A stretch of DNA of 64,000 nucleotides from Candidatus Thermosaccharophagus tengchongensis (GCA_032161105.1 JAVHTD010000016.1), one strand, 5' to 3'; numbered from the stretch's first letter, positions 2,421 to 34,676 are shown. The notes: a model not told the origin generated them from the sequence alone. Translations and numbers: made by a program.

Positions 2421-3699
2421 GACCGTGCACTCCGTGAACCATCAACACAGAACTTAAGCATGCCTTTAATGTCGGCAGAAGCTCGTTTGAGCTGCGCACA
2501 GCGAAGTATTTGACATGGTGAGTTTCAGCAAGTGTGGGAGAATGCTCATCGCTGTTGCATGCGCAGAAATGCACAATGATGCCACCCGATGCCCGCGTCT
2601 GGGCACCGCATATGCGTGAAAGCTTTTCCAACGCATCGGAAACAGCACTACAGGTTACGAGAAATATGGCAAAGCCAATTGGGTGAGAGCGATTAAACGA
2701 GCTGCCAATGTTTATCGGCAGGGAGGCTTCACGATATGTCAGCCTCGCCAACCGCTCAAGGAGCATAATTGCATCGCCGCTTCTCTTTCCCCTCATCCGA
2801 ACCTCCCATGCCCCAGTTAACGCATTCACATTACACCCCGCATTGTTCAGCGAGATTGCAAGTGTTGCCATGAACCTGATCATGTGCTCAAGCAGCGGCT
2901 CATCATCCCATGCGCTGTTTGTTTCGGCTCCATCGGGAGCGATGAGCGAGAGCATGCACGGCGCCATCCCATAATGCTCAAGCACCTTAACGATGAGCTC
3001 ACCGCGCCTTGCGCTGCACATCCAGTGAACGAACCTCAGATCATCCGTTGGAGCATACTCTCTCACACCACGATAGTCAAATGGATCACGAATAGCAAAT
3101 GCCTTTGCAAAGGCTGGGTTTGAACTCATAATGGTTTCGGGCTCGCAAAGGAGTCTTGGATAAACGACGCAGCTCCCATCACAGCCATACTCCCGCTCAA
3201 ACGAGAAGATGCCGAGTGGGCTGTCGCAAGCGAGCGTAAAACGCTCAATCTTATTCTCGCCGCGCTTCAGCCCATGAATGGACACGACCGCATCAGCGGA
3301 TTGCTCGCCAGCGATTGATGGGATAAACCAAACACTGCTCTGCCCAAAGTTGAGCGTCTTATTCAGGATGGTGATGTGAAACAGGAAGTTGAGCTTTGAC
3401 AGAGAGCCATGGTTGGTGAGCTTCAGATGCAAGTCGGCATTCTGACCCTCCCACAACCTGAGCTTCGGATATTGCAACCTGCATGTCACTCCACTCATGT
3501 TCACCAAGCCAAGCATAAAACTCACGAGCGGCACAAACAACAAGATGCGAGAGATGAAATGGGCTGGCTCGCTATCGTTGCTGACCCCAACAAGGTATAG
3601 CGCCAAGCCAAGCGTAAGAAAGGACGCCATTGTCCCCCACCGAATCCTCACCCTGCCCCTCAAAGCTCGCCGACTCGGTGGCATGCCTTTTATTCCCAT
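2413..3699 (-). CDS. DUF58 domain protein (vWA-like partner of MoxR ATPases)
   Basis: 428-aa ORF with two N-terminal TM helices. The DUF58 signature DDLRFVHWMCSARRGELIV is present. It sits between MoxR and the transglutaminase, which is the classic arrangement. Confidence 0.8.
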   Translation of the reverse strand: MGIKGMPPSRRALRGRVRIRWGTMASFLTLGLALYLVGVSNDSEPAHFISRILLFVPLVSFMLGLVNMSGVTCRLQYPKLRLWEGQNADLHLKLTNHGSLSKLNFLFHITILNKTLNFGQSSVWFIPSIAGEQSADAVVSIHGLKRGENKIERFTLACDSPLGIFSFEREYGCDGSCVVYPRLLCEPETIMSSNPAFAKAFAIRDPFDYRGVREYAPTDDLRFVHWMCSARRGELIVKVLEHYGMAPCMLSLIAPDGAETNSAWDDEPLLEHMIRFMATLAISLNNAGCNVNALTGAWEVRMRGKRSGDAIMLLERLARLTYREASLPINIGSSFNRSHPIGFAIFLVTCSAVSDALEKLSRICGAQTRASGGIIVHFCACNSDEHSPTLAETHHVKYFAVRSSNELLPTLKACLSSVLMVHGVHGHV

Positions 3700-3933
3700 C
3701 TGCCATAACCCCCATCACTCTGTTGACTGTAAGTGACCTTCACCACATCCAGTTGCAGCAGTTTAAGCCGACTCAATTCTGTTTGAGCTCGTCACCTTAG
3801 CATTCGCTTGTGGAGGCGAGCTGTGGTGGCAGATGACAGCCCATCTGCAAAACCGCTTTGCGCAAGTAAAGCCAATCCACATACAGGCGGTTTAACAACT
3901 GCCCCTACATTCAACTGCGCAGCTCCTATCGGT

Positions 3934-4875
3934 TTAAAGCGTGTCTGGCACTGGGATGAGGTCAAGCATCTCAGCAACAATCTGTTCTGCAACCAAACCC
4001 TCAGCTTGGTATATCGGTTTGACGATGAGACGGTGCGCAAGCACATCAATTGCAAGCGCCTTTATGTCATCGGGCGCAACATAATCCCTGCCATATATTG
4101 CCGCTCTTGCTTGAGCGGTGCGTGTGAGGAATAGAGAACCTCTCGGGCTTGCACCAAGCAGTAAGCGTTCGTCCTTCCTCGTTTGATGAATTATGCGCAG
4201 CACATATCCGTAGATCAAATCGCTCACAAATACTTCCCTCACCTCCCTCTGCATCTCCAGCACTTCATGCGCATCCGTAACCGGATGAAGCGCCTCAAGC
4301 GGGTGCGTCAAGCGCTGCTCAATTAGCACTTGCTTTTCCTCATCTGGGTTCGGGTAGCCGAGCCTCAAGCGCATGCAAAACCGGTCAACTTGCGATTCTG
4401 GAAGCACGAAGATGCCCTCGGGCTCAATTGGGTTCTGCGTGGCAATGATGAAGAACGGTTGCGGCAACTGGTAGGTGACACCATCAACTGTGACTTGATG
4501 CTCATCCATACACTCAAGCAGGCTTGATTGCGTTTTTGGTGATGCCCTGTTTATCTCATCGGCGAGCACTATGTTGGCGAATATTGGACCCGGTCGGAAG
4601 ACGAATCTGCCATCATGAAAGAGATACACATTTGTGCCAATGATGTCCGATGGTAGAAGGTCAGGCGTGCATTGTATCCGCTTGAATGTGCACCCGAGTG
4701 ATTTTGCGAGTGCCTTTGCGAAAGTCGTCTTGCCGACACCGGGAATATCCTCAAGCAGGATATGTCCACCTGCCAACAACGCTATGATCGCCTTCTCAAT
4801 CACATCGTCTTTTCCGATAATGACCTTCTTCACTGCCTCCTTTACCTTCTGCGCCCAGCTTTTTACATCCCTCAT
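3934..4875 (-). CDS. MoxR-family AAA+ ATPase
   Basis: Walker A is LEDIPGVGKTTFAKAL and Walker B is NIVLADEINRASPKTQSSLLE. The MoxR-type ...IIATQNPIEPEGIFVLPESQVDRF motif is also present. The ORF track starts at GTG 4887, which has no SD. ATG 4875 (MRDVKSW) follows GTGGTG plus 6 nt. Confidence 0.92.
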   Translation of the reverse strand: MRDVKSWAQKVKEAVKKVIIGKDDVIEKAIIALLAGGHILLEDIPGVGKTTFAKALAKSLGCTFKRIQCTPDLLPSDIIGTNVYLFHDGRFVFRPGPIFANIVLADEINRASPKTQSSLLECMDEHQVTVDGVTYQLPQPFFIIATQNPIEPEGIFVLPESQVDRFCMRLRLGYPNPDEEKQVLIEQRLTHPLEALHPVTDAHEVLEMQREVREVFVSDLIYGYVLRIIHQTRKDERLLLGASPRGSLFLTRTAQARAAIYGRDYVAPDDIKALAIDVLAHRLIVKPIYQAEGLVAEQIVAEMLDLIPVPDTL

Positions 4876-4923
4876 TTGAAACACCACACGCGCCGTATCT
4901 CATGCCCAAGCGCATCAACTGCT

Positions 4924-5829: not shown

Positions 5830-7944
5830 TTGGCGCAGAGCTCAGTTAATGTGCTTGTGTTTGGAGAGGAGTCCAAGCCGCGCCTCCGTCACATCTTCAA
5901 TGCGTTGAGAAAGCAGGCACCCAAGCTCGTCTCATTGCAAGCTTGTGTGCCTGCTACACCGATGGAGGCATTTTCATCTATGGCAAGAAAGCAATTGATT
6001 GAGGTGAGCGTGGAAAAGAAAGAACGAGAACTTCTGGCAACGCCTAAGGCACTCCTATTAGCCTTTGCTCTCGTCATCGGAATAACGGTTGCAGGTTGCT
6101 TTTCGGCATACTTGCGTTACGACCTAATTGGCACCGGTCATCTGCCACGCTGTGCGCTTTTCCCGATAATGGTGCTCACGCTCCTCAATAGCCTATGCAA
6201 GCGCCTCCTCGGCAGGGCAATCCTATCGCAATCCGAACTGCTCTTCATCTATTGCACGGTGCTCGTCATGACGGGCATACCGGGTCAACAATATGCCGAT
6301 TACCTCTACCTCGGTCTTTTAGCGCCAGTGTATTACTCGCATCCGAGAAACATGCCGGAGCTGCTCCAATACGATGTCCCGAATTGGCTCGCCTACATAC
6401 CAAGCTGCTTTTTGCCCTCAAAAGACCCGCGCAGTGGGGTCATAGCATGGGCATTTGAAGGTATGTCCGAGGGTGCAAAGATACCGTGGCAACCTTGGGT
6501 CATCCCATTGATGGTGTGGACGATATTTTATGCAGCACTGTTCTATGCAGCGATAGGGATTGCCACCGTGTTACGCAAACAGTGGGTTGAAAATGAGAAG
6601 CTTGTCTTCCCACTCGCCCAAGTCCCAATTGAAGTTGCAGATGAGGTTCGCTTGGGAGCTCTGGTGCGTAACCCGCTGATGTGGGTTTGTTTCATGATCC
6701 CTACCTTCATTTACACCGTGCGTGCCATTCACATTTACTTCCCGAGCTTCCCCAACATCAACATCTACAGAAACTTTGGCGTCCTGTTCAGCGGGCGACC
6801 TTGGGATGTGCTCAACTATATGCCGCTTAACTACTACTTTGACATGATCGGAATCACATACCTTATCACGACCGATGTCGGCTTCAGCTTCTGGTTCTTT
6901 TACATCGTTAGGAGGATGCAAATGGTCGTAAGGTCAGCTCTCGGTTTGACGGACTTTTATGTCCCGCTTGAGTTTCAGACCATCGGCGGGCTGCTCGCTC
7001 TATTCGCCATGCAAGTGTGGGTGGCGAGAGGATACTTAAGGGAGTTCATCACAGCAGCTTTACACCGAGAGGGAAAAGGCAGTGCGAATCAGACAAGGGT
7101 ATCGCCGCGCACAGCGCTCCTCATCATTTCCATCAGCTTTGTTGTTCTCCTTTTATTTGCGCGCGCCATTAACCTATCGCTGCATTGGGCTATGCTGCTT
7201 TTCGCCATCCACTTTATCTGGAGGATACTCGTTGCACGAATGGTGGCTGAGGCTGGTCTCTTTGTCTTCTGGACACCATCACCACACACATTTATCGTCA
7301 GGGCATTCGGAAAGGATGTAATCGGTCCGAAGAACATCACCGGGCTCAACATGATCGGTTCAAAGCTGAACGACTCCGCAACATGCGTATTGGCTCAAGC
7401 TGTTCAGACAATGAAGATAGCCAATGCAGCTCGCCTGAACGAAATTCAAGTCCTCAAATTGACGATGGCATCGGTGCTCATTTCCATGCTCGCATGCCAC
7501 CCAACATGCATTCACATACTCTACACAACACCAATACCAAAGATGGGTTGGTGGACAAGGGGCTATCCAGCTGGTATGGCTCGCACACTGCTCAACCAGC
7601 TCGTGCAAGACCAGAAAATGAAAACGGGTGACTACATCTCGCTCCTCTCCGGAGGCATCGTCACAATTGCGCTGTGCATGCTCAGGTGGCGTTTCCTCTG
7701 GTGGCCATTCCACCCACTCGGGTATGTGGCAGTAAATGGGACTTGGTTTGGCGACAGGTATGGCTTCAGCATCTTCTTCGGGTGGGTGATCAAGGCGATG
7801 ACGCTGTGGTTTGGCGGGATAAGGCTCTGGCAAATGCTCAGACCTGCCGCAATGGGCTTGATACTCGGAAACACCTTTATCCTCTTCCTGCTGTTGCTCC
7901 TTCACTTCTTCAAGCCGACAAATGAGGTCGTCGTCATTGAGTGA
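5830..7944 (+). CDS. Large polytopic membrane protein, paralog A of a three-member family of unknown function (possibly the DUF6785/DUF6784 type)
   Basis: The 704-aa ORF begins at TTG 5830. A more likely start is ATG 5980 (MARKQLIEV), which follows GGAGGC. It has many predicted TM segments. It shares the motifs EKLVFPLAQVPIE, YFPSFPN, ITTDVGFSFWFFY and FHPLGYV with the ORFs at 9238 and 15636. Confidence 0.8.
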   Translation: MAQSSVNVLVFGEESKPRLRHIFNALRKQAPKLVSLQACVPATPMEAFSSMARKQLIEVSVEKKERELLATPKALLLAFALVIGITVAGCFSAYLRYDLIGTGHLPRCALFPIMVLTLLNSLCKRLLGRAILSQSELLFIYCTVLVMTGIPGQQYADYLYLGLLAPVYYSHPRNMPELLQYDVPNWLAYIPSCFLPSKDPRSGVIAWAFEGMSEGAKIPWQPWVIPLMVWTIFYAALFYAAIGIATVLRKQWVENEKLVFPLAQVPIEVADEVRLGALVRNPLMWVCFMIPTFIYTVRAIHIYFPSFPNINIYRNFGVLFSGRPWDVLNYMPLNYYFDMIGITYLITTDVGFSFWFFYIVRRMQMVVRSALGLTDFYVPLEFQTIGGLLALFAMQVWVARGYLREFITAALHREGKGSANQTRVSPRTALLIISISFVVLLLFARAINLSLHWAMLLFAIHFIWRILVARMVAEAGLFVFWTPSPHTFIVRAFGKDVIGPKNITGLNMIGSKLNDSATCVLAQAVQTMKIANAARLNEIQVLKLTMASVLISMLACHPTCIHILYTTPIPKMGWWTRGYPAGMARTLLNQLVQDQKMKTGDYISLLSGGIVTIALCMLRWRFLWWPFHPLGYVAVNGTWFGDRYGFSIFFGWVIKAMTLWFGGIRLWQMLRPAAMGLILGNTFILFLLLLLHFFKPTNEVVVIE

Positions 7945-7970
7945 TTTCAATTGCGCCCTACCAAACACCG

Positions 7971-9092
7971 TCATGCGAAATACCTTCCATGCTCCTCAAC
8001 CGTTTCAACCATTGCCTTCAAATTCTCCCACTTGGCATCTGCGGGAACTTCATCACCCGTGACGAGTATGTAGGCGCCGCCTTCCATGCCCTCTGCAAGG
8101 CATCTCAATGTCTCCCTGCGCGCATCCTCAACCGTGCCGAATGAAAGCACGACACAGTTAAAGTTGCCCATGATGCAAACCCTGTCACCATACAATCGCT
8201 TTGCCTCACACAATGTTATGTCGCCTTGATTTGGTTCAAATGTCTCAATGAAGTGGACACCGGTGTCAACGAGCATTGGGAGAAGCTCCCTCACTCTGCC
8301 GAGCGTATACAAGCCGAGATACTTCCCACGCGTGCCCCTTACAAGCTCCATAGCTGCAACCACATCAGGGAGCACCCATCGTTCAAACATCTTCGGGCTC
8401 ATATTAGCCCCGGTTGCCCAGCAGATGTCAAGCCATGCAACTTCGGCTGGTGAGGCTATGAATGCTTCAACATACTTTAGCATCACTTGCCTGCCTATCC
8501 GCATCACCTCCTCCATCGTATCCGGGCAATCAAAGAGGTCAAACAATAAATCCTGCATCCCACGAGCCTCCCCAGCCATCGTGAAAGCTGGCACAAGACC
8601 AACACTTGCAATGCCATCCTCACCCATAACGGCTACTGCCTCCTTCACCGCTTCAAACTCAAACCCCTTAACCGATGAGAGCCACCGCTCATGGTAATCA
8701 ATCCACACTCCCCAGTCGTCGGTTGACTTGACCGGATATTCAACTGTCTTCCCGACGAGTGGGTCATGAGGTATCATTCCGCTGATGTGCTTTCCAAAAA
8801 GCGCTTTCTTCGGCGTCCTCAAGACTATCTCGCTGATGATGCGCCCACCCGACTCGGTTGAAATAACCCTTCTACCATACTCCCATCCTTCGGGCATCAT
8901 AACGGATACGCTGACACCCAATGGACCACGAAAATAAATGCTGCCCAGCATCTGATGGACCTCAAATACTGCCCTCCAATCGGACCTCCCAAGAAGCTTG
9001 TGCGCATAACGGCTGTGTATCAATGGAGCTACAGGAACGATATCCGGAACGCCACGGCGCAATGCCGTCATGAAACGCTCCCTCTTCGTCAT
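7971..9092 (-). CDS. Uroporphyrinogen-decarboxylase (URO-D) fold family protein, not in a haem-synthesis context
   Basis: The N-terminus MTKRERFMTALRRGVPDIVPVAP is typical of URO-D/MtaA-like proteins. The length and the C-terminal ...VTGDEVPADAKWENLKAMVETVEEHG also fit. Start refined to ATG 9092, which follows GAGGGTGA plus 5 nt. Confidence 0.8.
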   Translation of the reverse strand: MTKRERFMTALRRGVPDIVPVAPLIHSRYAHKLLGRSDWRAVFEVHQMLGSIYFRGPLGVSVSVMMPEGWEYGRRVISTESGGRIISEIVLRTPKKALFGKHISGMIPHDPLVGKTVEYPVKSTDDWGVWIDYHERWLSSVKGFEFEAVKEAVAVMGEDGIASVGLVPAFTMAGEARGMQDLLFDLFDCPDTMEEVMRIGRQVMLKYVEAFIASPAEVAWLDICWATGANMSPKMFERWVLPDVVAAMELVRGTRGKYLGLYTLGRVRELLPMLVDTGVHFIETFEPNQGDITLCEAKRLYGDRVCIMGNFNCVVLSFGTVEDARRETLRCLAEGMEGGAYILVTGDEVPADAKWENLKAMVETVEEHGRYFA

Positions 9093-9237
9093 GCCCATCA
9101 CCCTCAATCTGATTCAATGAAACTCACCGGAACGATAAGTTAGGGCGCACCGATGAGCCGCCTTGCGTATCATTGTAGTAGTTGCAGTGTTGAACTTGTA
9201 AGGTCAAATTTTTGTAGCGAAGCTGCCTTTAAGCACG

Positions 9238-11301
9238 ATGCCGAGCCACCCAAAAAGCTCGTTAATGAGGTGTGCAGGATTGCACCATGACAGGCTTTCG
9301 GACAGCCATATTGAGCGCGGCGCCATTGAAACGGGGATAACGGAAACAGGACAGCTCACCTTTGCAAGAGCAACCCCACGCATAGCGTATGTGCTTATCG
9401 TTGCCATCGGATTGAACATACTTTGTGGAATATGGATAAGGCAAGCCGAAATTGTGGTATTGGCAACACAGGTCTCAGAGGCAGTTCCGCCAGTGCCCGC
9501 AATCGGCGTCTTGCTCCTCCTTCTCATCACCAACATGCTGTTAAAGTTAATTCACCCCGCACTCGCGCTCAGCAGGGCTGAAGTGATGCTCGTTTACTTC
9601 TTCACGACGATCGCATCGTCGCTTCCCGGGTGCGGCATCGTGCGCTTCCTGTTTGCGCTCATTGGCACACCAATTTACTATGCATCAGCTGAGAACGAGT
9701 TTGACACCGTCCTTTGGCAAAACCTCCCAAGATGGCTTATACCGATGGACAAGGATGCAATGCGCTCACTTTATCTTTCCTCACCCGCCGGAGTCCCATG
9801 GGGTATATGGCTACCGAAGCTGGCTTGGTGGACGCTCTTCTTCTTGCTCTACTGGATTTGCTCACTTGGGCTTGTGTCGCTGTTTGCAAGGCAATGGTGT
9901 GACAAGGAGAAGCTCGTCTTCCCACTCGTGCAGCTGCCGTTGGAGATAACCAAAATTGAGGGCGGCAAGCTCACCTTCTTCAGGGACAGGCTGATGTGGA
10001 TTGGGTTTATCGCCTCCTCATTCTACAACGCTATGAACATGCTTAACGCTTACTTCCCATCCGTGCCGGCTTTTGGGAAAATGTTTGACATGGGCGCTTC
10101 ATTCGTTGAATCACCTTGGAGGGCGCTACGCCCACTCATCATCTGGTATCGTCCCGAACTCGTCGGATTTGGTTTTCTCGTCCCAACGGATGTCTCACTC
10201 TCAATCTGGCTCTCATACATGCTGATTAAGCTGCAAGCATTCGTCGGAGAGGTGATCGGATACAGGTATCCCGGCTATCCGTTTGCGCAAGAGCAAAGCC
10301 TTGGAGCATACATTGCTATGGCAATTTACCTGCTCTACACGGCTCGCCTTCACATATGGGAGGCATTGATAAGGGCTTTCCGGCACAGCACCGCCGCTCA
10401 TGGCGATGAGCAAAATGAGGTGGCTAACCCGCGCCAATCGCTCATGCTCATCGCTATTGGCTTTATCGGGATGGTGGCATTCGCATCAGCAGCTGGGATG
10501 GCTACTTGGCTTGCATCGCTATACTTTGCGATCGTCATTGCGGTGGCTTTTGTTTACGCACGCATAAGGGCGGAAGTTGGCATACCACTCATTTGGATGT
10601 TCCCATTCTTCCAGCAGAAGCGCTCCATCACATACACGCTTGGGACGAGGAGATTGCTTGAGAGGGGTGGGGTGAAGAGCATGGCAACATTTGCGCTCTT
10701 CACATTTATGGCTCGCGGGTATTATCCGGAGTTGATCGGATACCAGATTGAGGGCGTCAAGATGGCTGATAGCGCCGGCTGGAAGCGAAGCGCCATCATA
10801 CCTTGGAGCATACTCGCTCTCATCATCGGACTGTGGATTGGCTTTTACTTCCATCTCACCCCGTATTACGGCTACGGCGCTGTTAGGCTTCGTGGCGGCA
10901 TATGGGGCACTTGGCTCGCAATGGAGGAATACCGAGCTGTGGTCAGTGCAACGCATATACCATCACCACCGGAGATGCCCAAGGTCATAGCTACGATCGG
11001 CGGCGCAATATGCGTCTCACTATTTGCCGCCATCAGGCTGCTGTTCCTTCAAGTTCCGATACATCCGCTCGGATACGCAATGGCTGGAGCTTATGGCGAC
11101 CTCATCTGGGGACCGTTTTTCATCGTCTGGCTTTTGAAGACGCTCATACTGCGCTATGCTGGCGGGGTAGCTTATAGGAAGTGCATTCCACTCTTCCTCG
11201 GCTTCGCGCTTGGACACTACTTCACCGCCGGGTTGGTCTGGGGGCTGTGGTCTGTGACTGGAGCTGAGGTGTTCTCAAGATATGGAGTGTGGTTCGGATA
11301 A
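9238..11301 (+). CDS. Large polytopic membrane protein, paralog B of the unknown family
   Basis: 687-aa ORF with motifs EKLVFPLVQLPLE, YFPSVPA, LVPTDVSLSIWLSY and IHPLGYA. It is divergent from the URO-D-like gene across a 145-bp gap. Confidence 0.8.
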   Translation: MPSHPKSSLMRCAGLHHDRLSDSHIERGAIETGITETGQLTFARATPRIAYVLIVAIGLNILCGIWIRQAEIVVLATQVSEAVPPVPAIGVLLLLLITNMLLKLIHPALALSRAEVMLVYFFTTIASSLPGCGIVRFLFALIGTPIYYASAENEFDTVLWQNLPRWLIPMDKDAMRSLYLSSPAGVPWGIWLPKLAWWTLFFLLYWICSLGLVSLFARQWCDKEKLVFPLVQLPLEITKIEGGKLTFFRDRLMWIGFIASSFYNAMNMLNAYFPSVPAFGKMFDMGASFVESPWRALRPLIIWYRPELVGFGFLVPTDVSLSIWLSYMLIKLQAFVGEVIGYRYPGYPFAQEQSLGAYIAMAIYLLYTARLHIWEALIRAFRHSTAAHGDEQNEVANPRQSLMLIAIGFIGMVAFASAAGMATWLASLYFAIVIAVAFVYARIRAEVGIPLIWMFPFFQQKRSITYTLGTRRLLERGGVKSMATFALFTFMARGYYPELIGYQIEGVKMADSAGWKRSAIIPWSILALIIGLWIGFYFHLTPYYGYGAVRLRGGIWGTWLAMEEYRAVVSATHIPSPPEMPKVIATIGGAICVSLFAAIRLLFLQVPIHPLGYAMAGAYGDLIWGPFFIVWLLKTLILRYAGGVAYRKCIPLFLGFALGHYFTAGLVWGLWSVTGAEVFSRYGVWFG

Positions 11302-11420
11302 AAGCAGCTTATAAAATGTGGCTCACCTTGGAAGGCGATATTCCAGCCAAATCAAGACTTTGCGTCAGTTGGGCATTTGCTTCCCCACAAAAACACGGAA
11401 ACCCATCGGGGGGTGAAACA

Positions 11421-12899
11421 ATGGGCAGCATGAAATGGCGCAATACGAGGCGAGGCAGCTCAAAGAACAAAAGCACCGATGCTGTGCCGCTATGGGCGGG
11501 CAGGTTCACGGAGAAGCTATCAAGGGAGGCATTTTCATTCTCATCGTCATTCCCTTACGATAAACGCCTGTGGAAGTTTGACATAGCCGCAAGCATAGCG
11601 CATGTGCGCATGCTCGGGGCATGCAATGTGATTTCCGATGGCGAGAGCAAATTGCTCTCAAGCGAGCTTGAAAAAATGATGCGAGAGATAGAGTTGGGCA
11701 AGCTCAAGCTTGAGGGAGAGTATGAGGACATACACTCGTTCGTTGAGAGTGCCCTCACGAAGCGAATTGGTGATGTCGGAAGGAAGCTGCACACGGCGCG
11801 CAGCCGAAATGACCAAGTCGTAACGGATATGAAACTGTGGATGCGCTCAGCGATAGCGAAGCTGTGCGAGGCTATCTGTGAGCTGTGTGAGGCGCTTCTA
11901 TCGGTCTCGCAGAAGCACATTGATTTTCTCATGCCCGGATTTACACACCTGCAACATGCACAACCAATTCGCCTATCGCATCACCTCATGGCTTACTTTT
12001 GGATGATGCAACGGGATGCCGAGAGATTCATGAGCTTACACGAGCGCACAAATTTATCGCCGCTCGGCGCCGGGGCGCTCGCCGGAGTTGATTTCCCGAT
12101 TGACCCACGCATGACCGCAGAGATGCTCGGATTTGACGGGTGTATGCAAAACAGCATTGATGCGGTGAGCGATAGGGACTTCATCATTGAGTTCATTTCG
12201 TGCTGCGCAACCGTGATGATTCACCTGAGCAGGCTCGCAGAAGAACTCGTCCTTTGGAGCGCGCCCGAATTTGGTTTCATCAGGCTGAGCGAATCGCTAT
12301 GCACGGGGAGCAGCATGATGCCACAAAAGCGCAACCCGGATATGGCTGAGTTGATGAGGGCGAGATGCGGCAGGGTCATCGGCGCACTCGTTGCGCTCCT
12401 GACCGCACTGAAAGGCTTACCGCTCTCATACAATCGTGACTTGCAAGAGGACAAGTTGGCTATGTTTGAGGCATTTGATGTCACGCATTCGTCAATTCGC
12501 ATGGCTGCGGCGCTGATCACAACCGCAGAGTTTGACCGTGAGAGGATGCGCTCATCTCTCATCGGCGATTTCTCAACAGCGACCGATTTGGCAAGCGAAC
12601 TTGTGCGCAAAGGTATACCATTCAGGCAAGCACACTCAATTGTCGGGAAAATCATAAGGGAGCTCATCCGGCAAGGCAGGACGCTTGAAGATGTCACAGT
12701 TGATGAACTAAAGCGGCACTGCGATGCGTTTGACGAGGCTTCATTGATGGCTATCAAGCCCGAGGTCTCCGTTGAGAGGCGAGTTGAGTTGAGCGGGACG
12801 GCAAAGGCATCTTTGAGGCGGCAGTTTGCCGAGGGTAAGCGCTTCATCAAGAGGCTGCAAAAGTTTGTTGCCGGGTTGAAATTGTTTGGAGAACCTTAG
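11421..12899 (+). CDS. argH: Argininosuccinate lyase
   Basis: LWAGRF near the N-terminus, then SRNDQV, GFTHLQHAQP and the fumarate-lyase signature GSSMMPQKRNPD. The ORF-track start 11289 overlaps the upstream gene. ATG 11421 follows GGGGGGTGA. Confidence 0.95.
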   Translation: MGSMKWRNTRRGSSKNKSTDAVPLWAGRFTEKLSREAFSFSSSFPYDKRLWKFDIAASIAHVRMLGACNVISDGESKLLSSELEKMMREIELGKLKLEGEYEDIHSFVESALTKRIGDVGRKLHTARSRNDQVVTDMKLWMRSAIAKLCEAICELCEALLSVSQKHIDFLMPGFTHLQHAQPIRLSHHLMAYFWMMQRDAERFMSLHERTNLSPLGAGALAGVDFPIDPRMTAEMLGFDGCMQNSIDAVSDRDFIIEFISCCATVMIHLSRLAEELVLWSAPEFGFIRLSESLCTGSSMMPQKRNPDMAELMRARCGRVIGALVALLTALKGLPLSYNRDLQEDKLAMFEAFDVTHSSIRMAAALITTAEFDRERMRSSLIGDFSTATDLASELVRKGIPFRQAHSIVGKIIRELIRQGRTLEDVTVDELKRHCDAFDEASLMAIKPEVSVERRVELSGTAKASLRRQFAEGKRFIKRLQKFVAGLKLFGEP

Positions 12900-12975
12900 A
12901 ACCTTAAACGGGCAAGGTGTGGGGGTGCTTTAGCCTTGGCTTTTGAACCATCACGGCATCGGTGAGGTGACAGCG

Positions 12976-13854
12976 ATGCAAAAGTTTGCGTTCCGAACTC
13001 AAGCTGTCCCACTCGGATATGAGGGCGTCTCATTACAAGTTGACGGCGTTGAAGTGGTCCGCTACCAAACTGGGATGAATGCATGGCGTCCATTTCTATT
13101 CCCAGTGTTTGGTCCGTCTGGGAGAATGGTCACTCGCATCGGTCATCCGCATGACCCACATGGGCACCGCCATCACTACTCAATCTGGATGGGACACGCC
13201 AATGTCAACGGGCTTAACTTTTGGAGCGATGACACGAACAACAAACAAGTTCATCGGCGCTTCATTGAACTCGGAGATGGCATTGATAGAGCGTGGTGCG
13301 CTGTTGAAATTGATTGGGTGGCAAATGGAGCAAAGCCATTGCTGCGTGAGCGCCGAACAATAGCCATGACATATCCGCGCAAACCCGATGATCACAAAGG
13401 GTTTTGGCTGCTTGACATCGTGAGCGAGTTTGAAGCGCTTGAAGAGACCGTCACCTTCGGTGTAACTCCATTTGGGCTGCTCGGCGTGCGTGTGGCGAAG
13501 TCAATGGGAGTCCGTGACGGTGGCGGACGAGTCATGAACAGTAACGGGCAAATCAATGAGCGCGAGACGATGGCACAAAGGGCGGCATGGTGTGATTATT
13601 CTGGATGGGTGGCTGAGGGCGTTTGGGAGGGCATTTGCATTTTTGACCACCCGCAAAACTTTGACCATCCACCTGCATGGCATGTCCGTGACGATGGCTG
13701 GTTCTGCCCGTCGCACTTCCGCCATATGAGTCTACACATCGCTAAGGGTCACTACGCGAAATTCCGCTACAGGATCGTTATACACAGCACGGGGTTTGAA
13801 AGGGAGGAGCTCAACGAGCTGTATCGCCAGTTTGAAGGGGAGTTCAAAGGTTGA
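12976..13854 (+). CDS. PmoA-like / DUF6807 family protein (no signal peptide seen)
   Basis: Family motif: RPFLFPVFGPSGRMVTRIGHPHDPHGHRHHYSIWMGHANVNGLNFW. It is a paralog of the ORF at 34677. Start refined to ATG 12976, which follows GGTGAGGTGA plus 5 nt. Confidence 0.8.
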   Translation: MQKFAFRTQAVPLGYEGVSLQVDGVEVVRYQTGMNAWRPFLFPVFGPSGRMVTRIGHPHDPHGHRHHYSIWMGHANVNGLNFWSDDTNNKQVHRRFIELGDGIDRAWCAVEIDWVANGAKPLLRERRTIAMTYPRKPDDHKGFWLLDIVSEFEALEETVTFGVTPFGLLGVRVAKSMGVRDGGGRVMNSNGQINERETMAQRAAWCDYSGWVAEGVWEGICIFDHPQNFDHPPAWHVRDDGWFCPSHFRHMSLHIAKGHYAKFRYRIVIHSTGFEREELNELYRQFEGEFKG

Positions 13855-13915
13855 CGATAGTTTGAACCAAGGGTGAGGCATCAGCTGCACTTGCTCCCTT
13901 GACTCGCCGCGCCGT

Positions 13916-14566
13916 TCAATCATGGCACCGGGCGCATAGCTGTTTTGGTGCCGATTTAAGCAAGCCCTTGATGCTGGATGCATGTGTTGAATGGCACATT
14001 GTGCACTGCTCCATAGGTTGCTTTGAATGATGATGCTTCAACTCAAACTCAAGTTCGCTGTGGCATTTATCGCACGCGGATGGAACGAGCGCTTTGCCGA
14101 GGGCTAAACGGCTGTTTTGCTTCTCAACTGCATGACATGAAGTGCATTGAAGCTGCCCCTTCGCTGTTGGCGGATGGGAATACAGCTCCCCCCACCCCTT
14201 CGGTGGTTCTTTCGCACTGCCTCCCTTCACATAGACTGACAGCGTGGCATTGCCAACTTTGACAGCGTTCAACCCCGTAGTCAGCCTGACATGCGCGGCG
14301 AGCACAGGCTGGGCGAAAATTTCGTCCCACGATTGCACGGAGCCGTTGATGAGCAATTCGGGCAGACTGGAATGCCCCTGTGAGTCAACTCTCGTGAGCA
14401 TACAGATGACCGTTACCTCGCTCCTTGAGAGCGTGGAATGGTTTTGCGGGAATATGAACTTCACCGCTACTGGCTCTGCCATCTCCCTCATGCTGAGCGC
14501 TTTTACAAACCCGCCAACAAACGCCAACGGGAACAAAAGGACCGCACAATAGTATCTCACTGGCAC
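13916..14566 (-). CDS. Tetraheme c-type cytochrome (cytochrome c3/c7-like C-terminal module) with an N-terminal signal or anchor
   Basis: Four CXXCH motifs cluster in the last ~80 aa: CTSCH, CDKCH, CTMCH and CARCH, the last one residue from the C-terminus. The N-terminus YYCAVLLFPLAFVGGFV is hydrophobic. Confidence 0.85.
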   Translation of the reverse strand: MPVRYYCAVLLFPLAFVGGFVKALSMREMAEPVAVKFIFPQNHSTLSRSEVTVICMLTRVDSQGHSSLPELLINGSVQSWDEIFAQPVLAAHVRLTTGLNAVKVGNATLSVYVKGGSAKEPPKGWGELYSHPPTAKGQLQCTSCHAVEKQNSRLALGKALVPSACDKCHSELEFELKHHHSKQPMEQCTMCHSTHASSIKGLLKSAPKQLCARCHD

Positions 14567-14572
14567 GCCAAA

Positions 14573-15538
14573 TCACACCTTGCCGTATTTTCTCGTGTAG
14601 TTCGCGTTCTCGGTGACCTCATCTGTGAAGCGTGGATACATGCCCACAATTACGGCGTCCGTTTTCTTGATTTTCTCAAAGGCATACCTGAAGGCACTCT
14701 CAACTTGAGCCTTTGACCAACACTTCCGCCCGGCTGCGAGTATTTTAAATCCGAGGCATGGCTTGTTAACGCTCCTCATAACCGCCGTCATCTCATCGGG
14801 ATCGGATTCAAAGAACGGTTCATCAACTGGCACCTTACCGAGCTGCTTCAACATTTCCTCCCTCGGGCGAGTGACATAGTAGAAGCAACACATGAAGAAG
14901 TCGTTTTCCCAACCCTCATCCATGATGCGTTTAATCACCTCAGGGTTGTGCGCTGACACACCGGCGAGTGCTCCATGGTCATGAACCTTCTTCACGAAGT
15001 CGTGCACCTGCTGCGCCTTGCCAGCCCTGAAAAGCGCGTCTGTGACACCGCCGTGATGGGCTATAGCTATCGGCTTAAGCTTCATCACTTCCCTTATGGG
15101 CACATCCGTTGGGCGCTCCGCATGCAGGCATATAAGCTGTATTTGGCAGCCCCGTTCTCTGGCAATCTGAATGGCTTTGACTGTCTTGTCGGTGTAATCA
15201 AATTGCCATGTGTTGATACCTTGGCGCTCGCAGTGAATGAGGAATTCAGCCGTCCTCTCTGCGGTAAACCACTCGCGCATGTGCACGGACATGTGCCATG
15301 TTGAATGCGAATGCCCACCTATTGGGTTATAGCCGGCTATAAGCCTTGTGACTTTGTATTCTCCGAGCCTGATCGTCGGGAGCAATTCTTTCGCCGGCTC
15401 CTTAGACCAGTGGCTGATTTCCTCATCCTTACCAATAGCTGTCGTTGCGGCGATAGCCAGAGCACCAATGGAAGACAGGAAAGCCCTCCTTGAAGCTGCG
15501 TCTTTGAATTCGGTGACACTGTCAAACTGCTGCCCCAT
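14573..15538 (-). CDS. Tat-exported protein of unknown function (family not recognised)
   Basis: Twin-arginine signal ASRRAFLSSIGALAIAATTAIG. ATG 15538 follows GGAGAGGTGA plus 7 nt. The stop lies 6 nt upstream of the cytochrome gene. Confidence 0.7.
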   Translation of the reverse strand: MGQQFDSVTEFKDAASRRAFLSSIGALAIAATTAIGKDEEISHWSKEPAKELLPTIRLGEYKVTRLIAGYNPIGGHSHSTWHMSVHMREWFTAERTAEFLIHCERQGINTWQFDYTDKTVKAIQIARERGCQIQLICLHAERPTDVPIREVMKLKPIAIAHHGGVTDALFRAGKAQQVHDFVKKVHDHGALAGVSAHNPEVIKRIMDEGWENDFFMCCFYYVTRPREEMLKQLGKVPVDEPFFESDPDEMTAVMRSVNKPCLGFKILAAGRKCWSKAQVESAFRYAFEKIKKTDAVIVGMYPRFTDEVTENANYTRKYGKV

Positions 15539-15635
15539 CGTTAAATCACCTCTCCGAGCGAAAAATGTTTCAATGGCATTGGGCGACCTATCCACAAATT
15601 ATGATCCCTCGGCTCGCTGAGGAGTTCTCCCTCCT

Positions 15636-17603
15636 TCACTCGTTGAATCGGTAAACCTCTTTGTCAAACAGCACCCCGTATAAGTTCCACAGCCCACCGC
15701 TGACGAAATCACCAATGACTAACCCGATGAAGAAATTGCGAGCCGTGTAATAGGCAATGGATGAGCCATATCGTATCACCGCAGCCTTGCACATCCACGC
15801 GATGAACATGGGAAACCAAACCATCTCCATTGACCATGTCCCAGAGACCGCATAGCCGACTGGATGCAATGGAAAGTTGATGAAGTTAGAGCGAAGGAAG
15901 TGAAGCAGCCAGACAAAGCCGCCCCCACCAATGACGAAGCACATCGCACCATAGTTTGGCTTACGCTCAACGCTCAGCCATGGGATGAGATACCAGTTGT
16001 ATGCCTCCCATCCAAAGCCTCTCTGAGCACCGCCGACTTTTGAAGATGCAGCACCAAGACGATAGTATGGGATGAGAAGCGCATAGCATGATGACGGTAT
16101 CCCGAGAAGGATGGCTATCCACAGCGCGAGCCACATTGATTTTCCGATGCCGATACGCTCGCCTATCACGAGCCCTTCCATTGCTGTGGGCATCGGGTGG
16201 CTTCGCTGTGCCCTTGTGAACCAGTAGTAGAGAGTGAAGACTGTCAATGTCTTCGGTGTGAAAGGTTTTGTGCCGACCATCTGAACCATGACCACACCCG
16301 GGTTGGCGAAGTGAAGGTCATGGACTGGCGCCCCAAACTCACCGCGCAGCCTTGCGACAGTTATTGAAACGAGCGCATAGGAGACGAAAAAGATGGTGGC
16401 ATATTGCGGTTGCATCCCCGCATGTATGCTGAACCAAACTGTGAAGGCATACCCAAACACGACAAGCATCCATGCCATCTTCGGCGAAATGACAAATCGC
16501 TCGCCCACGCGCGAGCCGAACTTGAGCGTCTCAACGAGGTGTTTCCTCGCCGTCCAAAGCGTCAGCAAGCCCAAGCCGACATACGCGCCGAAGGATTGCT
16601 CATGTGGGTATGGCGGATTCCCTATACCCCCCGTCGGATAGCCAAATGCAGCCACAATAACACGCTGCATCTTCCAGACGAGATAAAAGAACCAACTTGA
16701 AAAGAGCAAATCGGTCGGGAGAAGGAAGCCAATGCCAATGGCAAATGGGAAGAAGTTAATCGGCGTCCAGCCGAGGGCATTCCACGGGCGCGATGTGATG
16801 TATGTGCCGAGGTTAATCTTGTGGGTGTGCATCTCTGGAACGGACGGAAACATCACATGCAAGTTATTAAGCGTGTTCACAAATGCCGGGATGGCAAAGC
16901 CGAGCCAGAAGAGATTGTTGCGATACATGCCCATTTCGGTTATGTGGAGGGCGAAATGAGCCAAAGGGAAGGAGAGCTTCTCACGCTGCACCCACTGCGG
17001 TATCAACAGGATGCATAGCCCCATGAACATGGCAAGCATAGCGAGCCAAAAGCACCACCACCACGCCAATGGGCGAAGCCATGCAAGAAAGTTCTGTGCC
17101 CTCCAAACTGTGGAGCCACCAACATACATGTCCCGCAGCGCCGCAAAGTCGGTCACCACGATCCAGCTGGGCAAATTCGGCATGATCAAATCCTCGTATC
17201 TATTGGTCGGAGCTTTGAAGTAATGCACATGCCCAATGACTGATAGCAGAACTTGCGATTGGTCATGCCCGACAAGAGCGCTGCCAACACCAAGGGAAAA
17301 ATAAATGACGAGCAGTTCGGCTCGCGTGAATGGCGCTCTCTTGAACGCCATCAGGCAAAGCCTGTTCAACCAATACAGCGCGAGGAGAAGGAGCACAGTG
17401 TTGAAGTAGAGCGAATAAGTCGTAGGATGCCCAGTCCACTTAACAGCCTCCATCCAGCCAACCCAATAGGCATTCAGGGGGATGAGCAGGGCTGAAACTG
17501 CGAAGGCTCTGAGCCGCACAACTTCCCTCTCTTCCAGTTGGCGCAGAAGTTCAACTCGGCTCGCTGTCACGAGTGAACATCTCCGCTGAGTGGGCTCTCG
17601 CAA
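15636..17603 (-). CDS. Large polytopic membrane protein, paralog C of the unknown family
   Basis: 655-aa ORF with motifs EKLSFPLAHFALH, MFPSVPE, LLPTDLLFSSWFFY and LHPVGYA. The ORF-track start is TTG 17603. In-frame GTGs at 17570 and 17519 have better SD context. Confidence 0.8.
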   Translation of the reverse strand: MREPTQRRCSLVTASRVELLRQLEEREVVRLRAFAVSALLIPLNAYWVGWMEAVKWTGHPTTYSLYFNTVLLLLALYWLNRLCLMAFKRAPFTRAELLVIYFSLGVGSALVGHDQSQVLLSVIGHVHYFKAPTNRYEDLIMPNLPSWIVVTDFAALRDMYVGGSTVWRAQNFLAWLRPLAWWWCFWLAMLAMFMGLCILLIPQWVQREKLSFPLAHFALHITEMGMYRNNLFWLGFAIPAFVNTLNNLHVMFPSVPEMHTHKINLGTYITSRPWNALGWTPINFFPFAIGIGFLLPTDLLFSSWFFYLVWKMQRVIVAAFGYPTGGIGNPPYPHEQSFGAYVGLGLLTLWTARKHLVETLKFGSRVGERFVISPKMAWMLVVFGYAFTVWFSIHAGMQPQYATIFFVSYALVSITVARLRGEFGAPVHDLHFANPGVVMVQMVGTKPFTPKTLTVFTLYYWFTRAQRSHPMPTAMEGLVIGERIGIGKSMWLALWIAILLGIPSSCYALLIPYYRLGAASSKVGGAQRGFGWEAYNWYLIPWLSVERKPNYGAMCFVIGGGGFVWLLHFLRSNFINFPLHPVGYAVSGTWSMEMVWFPMFIAWMCKAAVIRYGSSIAYYTARNFFIGLVIGDFVSGGLWNLYGVLFDKEVYRFNE

Positions 17604-17659: not shown

Positions 17660-18547
17660 TCAACTCACCCCGGAACGAATTATCATTGTGCCGATGCCCT
17701 CGTCAGTGAACAACTCCATCAAGAGCGCATGCGGTATAGCACCGCTGATTATATGCGCTTTCTCAACACCGCCCTTGAGCGCCTCAATGCACGCTTGGAC
17801 TTTCGGGATCATGCCCTCACCTATGACGCCCTCTTCAATCAGTCTGAGAGCATCCTCATCGGTGAGCGTTGAAATCAGCGTCAACTCATCATTCTGGTCA
17901 CGGCATATCCCGCGCACATCGGTAAGCACAATCAACTTCGCCGCATGAATGGCGGCTGCCAACTTGCCAGCAACATGATCGGCATTCAGGTTCAGCGTCT
18001 TGCCATCCTTATCGCTGCCGATTGAAGCGATCACCGGTATATAGCCGTTGTCAATAAGCACCCTTAGGACATCGGTATTGATGCTCTCCACTTCGCCGAC
18101 GAAGCCCAAGTCAACACCTTCGGTCTCGTCTGGGGTCAGGCGGCGAGCGGTGAACAGGTTGCCATCCTTCCCACTTAACCCGATCGCCCTTGCGCCATTT
18201 TGATTGAACAGCTCAACAAGCTCCTTATTCACACTGCCAGTGAGGACCATCTCAACTATCCTGACTGTTTCCTCATCAGTGACTCTCAACCCGCCGACGA
18301 ATTTCGGCTGCTTGCCCATTTGCCTCATCACTTCGTTTATCTCAGGACCTCCGCCGTGAACAAGCACCGGCTTTATCCCGACATAGTGCAACAGGACAAT
18401 GTCAGCAATGACCTGCTTCTTTAACTTCTCGTCAACCATAGCCTTACCGCCATACTTGATCACGATATGCTTCCCGTAAAAGTGCCGTATGTATGGCAAC
18501 GCCTCAATTAACACCTGAGCGCGCTTTTGAAGTTCATCGTTGATCAT
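17660..18547 (-). CDS. argB: Acetylglutamate kinase
   Basis: IVIKYGGKAM, PVLVHGGGPEIN and GGLRVTD, with full-length collinearity to ArgB. Confidence 0.95.
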   Translation of the reverse strand: MINDELQKRAQVLIEALPYIRHFYGKHIVIKYGGKAMVDEKLKKQVIADIVLLHYVGIKPVLVHGGGPEINEVMRQMGKQPKFVGGLRVTDEETVRIVEMVLTGSVNKELVELFNQNGARAIGLSGKDGNLFTARRLTPDETEGVDLGFVGEVESINTDVLRVLIDNGYIPVIASIGSDKDGKTLNLNADHVAGKLAAAIHAAKLIVLTDVRGICRDQNDELTLISTLTDEDALRLIEEGVIGEGMIPKVQACIEALKGGVEKAHIISGAIPHALLMELFTDEGIGTMIIRSGVS

Positions 18548-18809: not shown

Positions 18810-20453
18810 ATGCCAAATCCCCTGCCAAGTGCCGATAACGCCATGACCCATAAGGAGGTGAAATTCGCGCTGAGTCGCATTCATCTTTTCATCGCGGTGC
18901 TTGTCCTCGTTGCGTCTCTAATTAGGCTCGGTTTTGTTACCAGACAAAGCCTTTGGATTGACGAAGCATTCACAGTGAGTTGGTGCTCTGAGAGCCTGCC
19001 AAGGATGCTTAAACGGATAGCCAGTGAAGACCGCCATCCGCCATTGTATTGCTTGCTCTCATACCCAATCATGCATATCTCAAACTGCACATCATGCCCG
19101 TTTGAGTCCGCCGGCAAATGCGAAGCTTTAGTGAGATTGGTCTCTGTCATCTCCGGCAGCGCGCTCATTTTGGTCACAGCCTTAATTGGGACGCGCATCG
19201 GTGGCATTGCATGCGCATTGCTATCCGCATGCCTGCTTATGGTTCACCCCGGTGCAATTCATTTCTCGCAAGATGCGCGCCCATACATGTTGCACGCCTT
19301 ACTGTCAGCGCTTGCGTGCCTGCTTTGGATTGATGCTTTGAAGCGTCGGGACGAAGGAGCGGGGAGCAAGTATGGGGGAACCAACATACAGCTATCAAGA
19401 TATGTTGCGCTATGCATCGTCAGTTTGCTCAGTCTGTATTCGTGCTACATGGCATTTGTTCCTTGGCTTGCACGAGTGCTCTGTGCAAGCGCACTACTTA
19501 AGCGGAGGAAAGACCGCACCTACTCATACTTGGTTGCTGCTGACATCATCGCTGCGAGTGCGCTCATGCTATGGCTTGCGTTTGTCCTTTCACAGCCAAA
19601 TGTTATGGGCACGAAAGTGACACCGACCAAAACTGGAATTGCAGTAACCATGGCTTTTGTAATGAATGACTTTGTCGGATATGAATACGGTTTAAGCCAT
19701 GCTTCAGCACCCATCCTCACACTCACGCTTATATCGTCCGTTACTTGCTTGATCATTCTCGCTGTCACCGCATACACCGCATTGCGCAACGCTGCCCGAA
19801 GCAATGGAGAGCAAAGCGATGAGGCATTGAAACTGATGCTCGTATGGTTAGCTATGCACTTGGCTTTGCTGCTCATAGCGCCATCGCTCATGGGCGAATT
19901 CAATCGCTGGCAACGCATCATTGACGGCATAGTCCCACTCTCACTCTTGCTCGCCTATAGTGCCGTGCATGTGCACCCAGCCGCAAGTTCACCATTCAGA
20001 AGGCTTATCACAGCCAATGCGAGGCTAATGGTTGCCATCTTGCTCGTGCTCCATTGCGTTGGGACATACAACCAATTCCACGATAGCCATTATTTCCGTG
20101 AGGACTGGCGCGGTGCTGCTCAATTTGCCATGGCACATGAGGATGAATTTGACTTCATTGTCCTCAACGCGCCTGTAGGGAGCCTCGCATTTAGGCTCTA
20201 CTACAGCGGGCAAAGGAAGTTTGAAGATGTGCCACCACTTGTGACCAACGCTGAGCGAAAGAGAGCAAGCACATGGCTGCAAAAGCTCCTAAGCAGGCAC
20301 AAACGCATACTCGTGATTGAGTGCAGGTCTTGGTTGATTGACCCAACTGGTTGGTTGAGTGCACAGCTTAAAAGGCGCGCAAGACCAATTGCAAGATGGC
20401 ATAGCTCAAAGATCAGCGCAATAGTTTGGGAGGTGAGAAAGACCGAAGATTAG
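18810..20453 (+). CDS. GT-C fold membrane glycosyltransferase (family 39 / ArnT-PMT-like)
   Basis: Multi-TM protein with an N-terminal LWIDEAFT motif, typical of the PMT_2/ArnT family first loop, and a soluble C-terminal domain. ATG 18843 is an alternative start. Confidence 0.75.
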   Translation: MPNPLPSADNAMTHKEVKFALSRIHLFIAVLVLVASLIRLGFVTRQSLWIDEAFTVSWCSESLPRMLKRIASEDRHPPLYCLLSYPIMHISNCTSCPFESAGKCEALVRLVSVISGSALILVTALIGTRIGGIACALLSACLLMVHPGAIHFSQDARPYMLHALLSALACLLWIDALKRRDEGAGSKYGGTNIQLSRYVALCIVSLLSLYSCYMAFVPWLARVLCASALLKRRKDRTYSYLVAADIIAASALMLWLAFVLSQPNVMGTKVTPTKTGIAVTMAFVMNDFVGYEYGLSHASAPILTLTLISSVTCLIILAVTAYTALRNAARSNGEQSDEALKLMLVWLAMHLALLLIAPSLMGEFNRWQRIIDGIVPLSLLLAYSAVHVHPAASSPFRRLITANARLMVAILLVLHCVGTYNQFHDSHYFREDWRGAAQFAMAHEDEFDFIVLNAPVGSLAFRLYYSGQRKFEDVPPLVTNAERKRASTWLQKLLSRHKRILVIECRSWLIDPTGWLSAQLKRRARPIARWHSSKISAIVWEVRKTED

Positions 20454-29686: not shown

Positions 29687-29709
29687 CTTTGACCTCGCCC
29701 CCATAGGGT

Positions 29710-34492: not shown

Positions 34493-34676
34493 GGGAGGGT
34501 TGAGTGAATTCAACCGCAAGTGAGATAGCTTTCCACCTTGCAATCAATTCCGATGGCGAAGTGATGCAACAGTTGAAGCAAACCGTAGCTTGCCCAATTT
34601 CTTCCGCGGTTAAAAGCGCTTATACCAGCATAGGGAATGCAACGAGCAGCGGCATTAGCTGCAAGGGGTGAATTTG

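Follow-up and report, generated by a model that had tools for sequence, protein, structure and literature searches.

Three diverged DUF6785/DUF6784 membrane proteins of Candidatus Thermosaccharophagus tengchongensis as predicted members of a remote OPT/YSL transporter branch

Introduction

A 64,000-nucleotide stretch of DNA from Candidatus Thermosaccharophagus tengchongensis (GCA_032161105.1, JAVHTD010000016.1; called the window here) encodes three homologous large membrane proteins within less than 12 kb. We call them A, B and C. An earlier reading of the same DNA (the original prediction) had described them as polytopic membrane proteins of a family awaiting description. Here we report that the predicted structures of A and C match the fold of the OPT/YSL transporter superfamily and that profile comparisons of the family point the same way. 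The three open reading frames (ORFs) are as follows, with lengths in amino acids (aa).

Paralog A: 5830..7944, + strand; 704-aa ORF; DUF6785 + DUF6784; predicted OPT/YSL-fold transporter.
Paralog B: 9238..11301, + strand; 687 aa; DUF6785 + DUF6784; argH is next on the same strand.
Paralog C: 15636..17603, − strand; 655 aa; DUF6785 + DUF6784; family-typical copy; predicted OPT/YSL-fold transporter.

Results and Discussion

Three full-length paralogs of one family

By BLASTP, A and B share 25% identity over 568 columns (E 2e-46), A and C 27% over 660 columns (E 5e-54), and B and C 29% over 584 columns (E 2e-74). Four motif blocks occur in the same order in the three translations (given as A / B / C): EKLVFPLAQVPIE / EKLVFPLVQLPLE / EKLSFPLAHFALH; YFPSFPN / YFPSVPA / MFPSVPE; TTDVGFSFWFFY / PTDVSLSIWLSY / PTDLLFSSWFFY; and, at the C-terminus, FHPLGYV / IHPLGYA / LHPVGYA. 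The three homologous full-length ORFs, their coordinates and strands, the shared order of the motif blocks and the polytopic membrane character had all been noted in the original prediction, and all are borne out here. Judged by these alignments, A, B and C are true, full-length and old paralogs, and recent duplication is not their origin. A tblastn search with A, B and C found no fourth copy in the window. B is predicted to be an OPT/YSL-fold transporter through its homology to A and C.

All three proteins belong to a single Pfam family pair. DUF6785 (PF20581, approximately 500 aa) matches A with E 3.5e-119 (399 bits), B with E 3.7e-122 (409 bits) and C with E 3.5e-132 (442 bits), covering profile positions 1–498; the gathering score is 25 bits. 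DUF6784 (PF20580, approximately 100 aa) lies C-terminal to DUF6785 and matches A with E 7e-22 (77.9 bits), B with E 2.4e-19 (69.8 bits) and C with E 1.1e-30 (106.2 bits), the gathering score being 26.4 bits. The original prediction had tentatively suggested these two labels, and the Pfam search proves them right (E approximately 1e-120 and 1e-20 to 1e-31). The two domains occur together in 120 of the 120 listed homologs and in all 70 aligned members. Both Pfam entries are without functional annotation, NCBIfam holds no model for the family, and a literature search returned no paper mentioning DUF6785, DUF6784, PF20581 or PF20580.

The start of A deserves a comment. In the 704-aa ORF the Pfam match does not start until residue 71, and its closest ortholog, in a second Ca. 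Thermosaccharophagus locus (L001), is 652 aa long. The annotated TTG start at 5830 is therefore probably too far upstream, and Met45 (nucleotide 5962) or Met51 (nucleotide 5980) is the likelier start.

Predicted structures match HvYS1

An AlphaFold2 model of C was built from the family alignment of 70 sequences, and templates were not used. The model has a predicted local distance difference test (pLDDT) score of 92.6 and a predicted TM score (pTM) of 0.92. A model of A, the most divergent paralog, was built separately (pLDDT 86.5, pTM 0.89). When the model of C was searched against the PDB with Foldseek, the sole matches at E<=0.001 were two entries of barley Yellow Stripe 1 (HvYS1), 7wst and 7wsr (E 1.2e-7 and 3.1e-7, TMq 0.59–0.61, TMt 0.64–0.66, approximately 680 columns). 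The model of A likewise matched only HvYS1, over its full length (best E 2.3e-7, TMq 0.64–0.65, TMt 0.69–0.70). For both models together, the HvYS1 matches span E 1e-7 to 1.5e-6, and the remaining PDB matches have E>=0.01 and TM<0.2.

The HvYS1 structures were released in November 2022, and the training cut-off of the AlphaFold2 weights is April 2018. Since no templates were used either, the models are independent of the HvYS1 structure. To our knowledge, HvYS1 is the only member of the OPT/YSL superfamily with a solved structure. Its authors report that neither of its domains has a structural homolog (PMC9691689), so a match to the HvYS1 fold is specific to this superfamily. GT-C, Wzx/MurJ and Wzy-type families gave no Pfam or NCBIfam match in A, B or C and were not among the Foldseek matches of A and C.

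The statement that no characterised transporter family matches these proteins is thus overturned, as the models of A and C match HvYS1 and the profile comparisons described below agree. The original prediction had named a significant structural match to a well-characterised family as grounds for rejecting it, and OPT/YSL provides such a match. What had been taken for a protein family awaiting description appears instead to be a diverged branch within an already known superfamily of transporters.

Profile comparison with OPT/YSL

An OPT/YSL alignment was assembled around the HvYS1 sequence, which was taken from the PDB search alignment and followed by plant YSLs and then by diverse OPT/YSL representatives (50% identity). 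It contains 30 near-full-length sequences with 24–58% identity to HvYS1. A 113-aa fragment of HvYS1 used as a query returned plant exon fragments only, and no OPT match was found in the plasmid collection.

Comparison of the family alignment (70 sequences) with the OPT/YSL alignment by hhalign gave one collinear alignment of 551 columns with E 1.4e-4. It runs end to end, from residues 19–636 of C to residues 39–655 of HvYS1. When either alignment was reversed as a control, the E values were 0.1–0.2 over approximately 47 columns. The family against the lone HvYS1 sequence was not significant (E 0.11), and the equivalent N-terminal region was aligned. Among the 18 column pairs that are conserved in both families, 12 carry the identical residue; shifted registers averaged 0.9 identical pairs, with 4 at most. 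The identical pairs (C=HvYS1) are E96=E114, L210=L196, P213=P199, P256=P256, G290=G277, G292=G279, S302=S289, Y341=Y328, D429=D446, L453=L475, G501=G519 and G631=G650.

A profile of our own made from the OPT alignment was run against 211 family members by unfiltered hmmsearch and gave ten matches of >=10 bits. The best (25.1 bits, E 5e-8) places OPT positions 30–203 on family residues 12–217, reaching the KLxFP motif. Reversed sequences scored 6.9 bits at most. Taken together, the fold match and the profile evidence make homology of the family to OPT/YSL well supported.

In the hhalign comparison, DUF6784 pairs with the final helices of HvYS1. DUF6785 and DUF6784 therefore correspond to the N-terminal and C-terminal portions of a single fold. 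A comparison of the N half with the C half of the family by hhalign found no internal repeat. The region of the OPT profile around the first transmembrane helix (TM1; hidden Markov model (HMM) positions 40–102) also gives weak matches of 10–12 bits to the start of the C half of DUF6785 proteins, at residues 372–430 of the family protein from locus L043 and in the corresponding region in L048, L039, L054 and L056. These matches resemble a trace of the inverted internal repeat that has been described in the core of HvYS1.

The KLxFP motif and putative pocket residues

Four short elements relate the paralogs to HvYS1, or set C apart from A and B.

EKLVFP motif of A: 6595..6612, + strand; residues 256–261 of the 704-aa ORF; counterpart of OPT/YSL (D)YKLvYP.
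EKLVFP motif of B: 9907..9924, + strand; residues 224–229; placed by translation, BLASTP and hhalign mapping as for A.
REKLSFPLA motif of C: 16959..16985, − strand; residues 207–215; maps to HvYS1 L196/P199.
H428-D429-L430-H431 of C: 16311..16322, − strand; kept in 90–97% of the C-type family; absent in A and B.

EKLxFP lies within the first of the four motif blocks. In the alignment of 70 sequences P213 is invariant, and E208 and L210 are near-invariant. The HvYS1 counterpart reads 193-DYKLVYPSGTATA, in which DYKLVYP aligns with the EKLxFP of the family. By hhalign, L210 and P213 of the family correspond to L196 and P199 of HvYS1, and the proline is invariant in both alignments. The second half of the KLx(Y/F)PSGTATA signature, SGTATA, is replaced by LAQ, LVQ or LAH in A, B and C.

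Asp446, Asp490 and Asp494 of HvYS1 are the proposed proton sites, and mutating any one of them impairs transport (PMC9691689). D429 aligns with Asp446; it is present in C and in 96% of the family and is absent in A and B. The surrounding H428-D429-x-H431 of C maps to T445-D446-x-N448 of HvYS1, and H113/D114 of C map to G132/G133 in the unwound part of TM2 (both by hhalign). Asp490 and Asp494 have no identical partner in the family; the conserved E476 of C aligns with HvYS1 Q493, next to D494. The putative pocket region of C is rich in histidine, aspartate and glutamate (H113/D114, H428-D429-x-H431, H469 and E476).

The three paralogs differ in how much of this they keep. At the 20 conserved charged or histidine positions of the family, C retains 19, B 14 and A 10. 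D114, the HDxH motif, R467 and H469 are lost in both A and B. Conserved polar and non-polar sites were lost to a similar extent in these two proteins. The divergence of A and B is therefore general, though it includes the putative pocket.

Distribution

The best homologs of the three proteins come from metagenome-assembled genomes (MAGs) of Armatimonadota, and every one carries the name "hypothetical" or "DUF6785 family protein". Among species-representative genomes, C shares 84% identity with a Ca. Thermosaccharophagus yellowstonensis protein and 66–68% with proteins of Ca. Fervidibacter, which places the window in a Fervidibacteria genome (Armatimonadota) near the Thermosaccharophagaceae. 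A pattern-limited scan of species-representative genomes confirmed at least 545 relatives. Most of them belong to Armatimonadota or Poribacteria, and some to Hydrogenedentes, Sumerlaeota or Zipacnadia. Two or three copies lie within approximately 20 kb in 8 of 80 loci, in addition to the window itself, and several MAGs have two or three separate family loci each.

The orthologs in L001 are 82% identical to A and 75% identical to B, the latter also being followed by argH. This degree of identity indicates that A and B are under purifying selection. In our sample, orthologs of A and B were found only in Ca. Thermosaccharophagus. Both are outliers within DUF6785/DUF6784, and C is typical of it. 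Fervidibacteria are hot-spring polysaccharide degraders, and the paper on F. sacchari mentions only a canonical OPT transporter (PMC11535203).

Gene neighbourhood

The genes around the three paralogs are listed below.

URO-D/MtaA-like gene: 7971–9107, − strand; between A and B.
argH: 11289–12899, + strand; after B.
DUF6807 gene: 12943–13854, + strand; E 7e-71 and 3e-63 for this gene and a second copy at 34668–35564 (+), in that order.
Tetrahaem c-type cytochrome: 13916–14566, − strand; four CXXCH; Pfam Paired_CXXCH_1 E 3.8e-12; 6 nucleotides downstream of the Tat-signal protein.
Tat-signal orphan protein: 14573–15595, − strand; SRRAFLSSIGALAIA in translation, with the twin-arginine signal SRRAFLSS; 40 nucleotides downstream of C.
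argB: 17660–18547, beyond C; first gene of an apparent argB–C–Tat protein–cytochrome string.

All the neighbours named in the original prediction (the URO-D-like gene, argH, DUF6807, cytochrome c, the Tat protein and argB) are present. The cytochrome has a partial NCBIfam match to the DmsE decahaem family. Searches of Pfam, NCBIfam and the PDB gave no match for the Tat-signal orphan. It is not a DUF6785/DUF6784 member and is possibly co-transcribed with C. It adjoins C in L001 (83% identity) and in the near-identical metagenome contig L081, where the order C–Tat protein–cytochrome is kept; it does not adjoin C in the Fervidibacter loci (L003 and L004).

Conservation of the context is shallow. 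L001 has the order TgpA–DUF58–MoxR–BFN–A–B–argH–C–Tat protein–cytochrome–argB, without the URO-D-like gene or DUF6807, and L081 has argB–C–Tat protein–cytochrome. The A–B–argH–C arrangement is conserved only in L001, the closest relative. In L003 and L004 the conserved string is the C ortholog, ftsY, a GNAT acetyltransferase and a second DUF6785 paralog. L004 also has a third paralog, preceded by genes for an amino-acid permease and a methyltransferase; the window has homologs of this gene pair side by side at 53695–56281.

No conserved partner emerged from the wider sample. No Pfam family occurred in more than 6 of the 144 adjacent genes (80 genomes). The top recurring neighbour (six cases) was of the FG-GAP/ASPIC/ankyrin kind and came from closely related, near-identical Poribacteria loci. 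BLAST clustering of approximately 1000 neighbouring ORFs gave no partner in more than 16 of the 80 loci, and those 16 were not adjacent. A closely spaced gene on the same strand, on one side or the other, flanks only about one quarter of the family genes. Rfam searches found no match of any kind in the window and no riboswitch before family genes in 20 homolog loci, where only a tRNA and one c-di-GMP-I riboswitch were detected. The latter (L018, 6114–6224, − strand, 55.6 bits) precedes a gene that adjoins a DUF6785 homolog in an Armatimonadota MAG. A promoter and terminator scan gave counts at the level of shuffled sequence.

A pairing of each copy with the enzyme encoded next to it is therefore unsupported, as no neighbour recurs and the context is conserved only at short range. 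Homologs elsewhere do lack conserved neighbours, but they are not single housekeeping genes, multi-copy occurrence being common. The best explanation of the cluster is a set of old duplications kept side by side in a Thermosaccharophagaceae-like lineage, and not an operon with the neighbouring enzymes.

Other genes in the window

The URO-D-like gene between A and B has a paralog of the same fold at 50981–52198 (+). In NCBIfam, the product of 7971–9107 scores best against MtaA/CmuA-type methylcobamide methyltransferases and not against HemE, all far below the family cut-offs. The DUF6807 copy at 34668–35564 is flanked by a xylose-isomerase-like TIM-barrel gene and a GFO/IDH/MocA oxidoreductase, and this group resembles a sugar-oxidation cluster. 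Upstream of A, positions 267–4887 (−) hold a cluster of a MoxR AAA+ ATPase, a DUF58 protein and a TgpA-like transglutaminase membrane protein, which has the same position before A in L001.

Three further large membrane proteins look GT-C-like: 18810–20453 (+), 20578–22974 (+) and 46193–48232 (−). One matches Agl23/STT3 weakly, one YfhO and one PMT_2. The first two lie just past argB and adjoin the paralog cluster. Four ORFs of 244–506 aa have no Pfam match at E<=0.001, at 27440–28444 (−), 28511–29752 (−), 44633–46153 (−) and 56993–57727 (+); the first of these has a weak Peptidase_M14 match (E 0.0014).

Interpretation and alternatives

We consider it likely that A, B and C are anciently diverged DUF6785+DUF6784 paralogs and that their family represents a distant prokaryotic lineage within the OPT/YSL superfamily (Transporter Classification 2.A.67). 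By analogy with HvYS1, they are probably three subfunctionalised secondary transporters with the OPT fold, of the elevator type, and probably solute importers rather than a wholly new kind of protein. HvYS1 is a proton-coupled importer with a substrate-binding core and a scaffold domain, for which its authors propose an elevator-type mechanism (PMC9691689). A, B and C would each have a mobile transport core and a scaffold domain of this kind. The proton gradient would power an elevator-type movement that imports a small solute, with peptides or metal-chelate complexes as candidate substrates. C would be the family-typical form, in which D429 is the counterpart of HvYS1 Asp446. A and B probably differ from C in substrate, in ion coupling or in both, because D429 and residues of the putative pocket are replaced in them. 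Their divergence under selection fits subfunctionalisation in substrate or coupling. The functional specialisation suggested in the original prediction is thus in line with the copies differing at positions mapped to the HvYS1 substrate and proton pocket; the part that tied it to neighbouring enzymes is unsupported.

Several observations weigh against this assignment. The OPT models of Pfam (PF03169) and NCBIfam do not match A, B or C (E<=0.01), PF03169 matches none of the 70 family members even at E<=10, and a PDB sequence-profile search with the family alignment returned nothing. The hhalign probability for the family against OPT/YSL is 52%. A, B and C themselves score <=0 bits against our own OPT profile, so their sequence link to OPT/YSL is transitive, through other family members; remote homology at the level of sequence accordingly has moderate, transitive support. 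TM values of 0.6–0.7 with root-mean-square deviations of 6–7 Å leave room for architectural differences. The mapping of residues onto the HvYS1 pocket rests on a profile alignment of approximately 15% identity, and transport, proton coupling and elevator motion are all carried over by analogy. Without a conserved neighbour or riboswitch, the context gives no clue to the substrate.

Other roles were weighed against the same data. That the proteins are not transporters at all, and are membrane enzymes, flippases, polymerases (for example GT-C-like), sensors or scaffolds that share a helical bundle, seems very improbable. The silence of the Pfam and NCBIfam OPT models would agree with it, as would the GT-C-type membrane proteins encoded close by and the loss of conserved polar residues in A and B, which is often seen in pseudo-transporters. 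Yet Foldseek returned no GT-C protein, flippase or polymerase, and everything other than HvYS1 stayed below TM 0.2. The HvYS1 match spans the full length and came up with both modelled paralogs, conserved positions of the two families fall together, and the 75–82% identity of A and B to their L001 orthologs points to purifying selection. We know of no characterised OPT member that transports sugars, and this counts against a second possibility, that the family consists of oligosaccharide importers with an OPT-like fold and a new substrate class, serving a large glycoside hydrolase (GH) repertoire. We regard this as unlikely. The family is concentrated, and present in multiple copies, in Armatimonadota, Poribacteria, Hydrogenedentes and Sumerlaeota, and the Fervidibacteria are documented polysaccharide specialists (PMC11535203). 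Many sugar genes occur in the window and in homolog loci (GH42-like, GH95-like, 3-keto-disaccharide hydrolase, xylose-isomerase-like TIM, GFO_IDH_MocA and PfkB), and GH42, GFO_IDH_MocA, AP_endonuc_2 and MR_MLE are each found two or three times among adjacent genes. However, this is also the highest count for any carbohydrate gene among the 144, none being a conserved neighbour; such genes are abundant genome-wide, so their adjacency may be background, and none of A, B and C lies directly in a GH operon.

An import of transition metals or metal chelates by the C-type proteins, with C, the Tat protein and the tetrahaem cytochrome forming a reductive metal-uptake module, is in our judgement quite improbable. 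The sole structural relative, HvYS1, transports Fe(III)-phytosiderophore. C-type proteins conserve H113/D114, H428-D429-x-H431, H469, E476 and H580, several of which map by hhalign to the pocket and proton-site region of HvYS1, but clusters of histidine, aspartate and glutamate are equally typical of proton relays. The three genes are co-directional, with gaps of 40 and 6 nucleotides, and their order is kept in L001 and L081; the linkage is found neither in the Fervidibacter orthologs, which have ftsY and GNAT instead, nor in the other 76 loci, and so belongs to one family-level clade only. No metallophore-synthesis or metal-regulator genes lie nearby. A broader form of the transporter assignment can also be drawn up, in which the family is a separate, hitherto unrecognised prokaryotic OPT branch with a rebuilt pocket, lined by histidine, aspartate and glutamate in C-type members and without those residues in A- and B-type members. 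Such a family would carry a substrate class new to OPT, such as oligosaccharides or transition metals in free or chelated form, and C, the Tat orphan and the cytochrome would act as a reductive uptake module in Thermosaccharophagaceae. We hold this form to be unlikely. The reading we prefer remains that of a remote OPT/YSL branch with three subfunctionalised copies.

Significance

Only one structure has been solved for OPT/YSL, and studies of its bacterial members are few. Through the link to the OPT fold, several hundred or more membrane proteins now called "hypothetical" acquire a role that can be put to the test. These relatives belong to heterotrophic phyla about which little is understood (Armatimonadota, Poribacteria, Hydrogenedentes and Sumerlaeota), and the multi-copy state suggests that they are important for nutrient uptake in these lineages. 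The Fervidibacteria copies are from (hyper)thermophiles and may be stable enough to help trap additional conformations of the elevator cycle proposed for OPT proteins. Three copies that differ at pocket-mapped residues offer a natural comparison for the determinants of substrate and coupling. The finding extends a known superfamily and introduces no new principle.

Comparison with known systems

The proposed architecture has in common with elevator transporters such as GltPh/EAAT, CitS, NapA/NhaA, AE1/Bor1 and the SiaQM TRAP transporter the general plan of a core that moves against a scaffold and contains hairpin and broken helices. Some of these appear far down the Foldseek lists (E>0.1, TM 0.08–0.18), and there is no meaningful structural similarity to them.

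The closest known system is OPT/YSL itself (PF03169; HvYS1, 7wsr/7wst). The family differs from it in sequence, with approximately 12–16% identity, and is undetected by the OPT HMMs of Pfam and NCBIfam. The hallmark SGTATA after the conserved proline is not present in A, B and C, and C-type proteins have motifs of their own (GHD, RAELGxPVHDLH, NRAYRSHPMP and FHPxGY). The family is distributed among Armatimonadota, Poribacteria and their allies instead of plants and fungi. The two are alike in length (approximately 650–700 aa) and in their full-length fold, with TM values of 0.61–0.70 for two paralogs. They share the (E/Y)KLx(F/Y)P motif, a glutamate after the second helix (E96=E114), a G-x-G...S block (G290/G292/S302 = G277/G279/S289) and the aspartate Asp429=Asp446.

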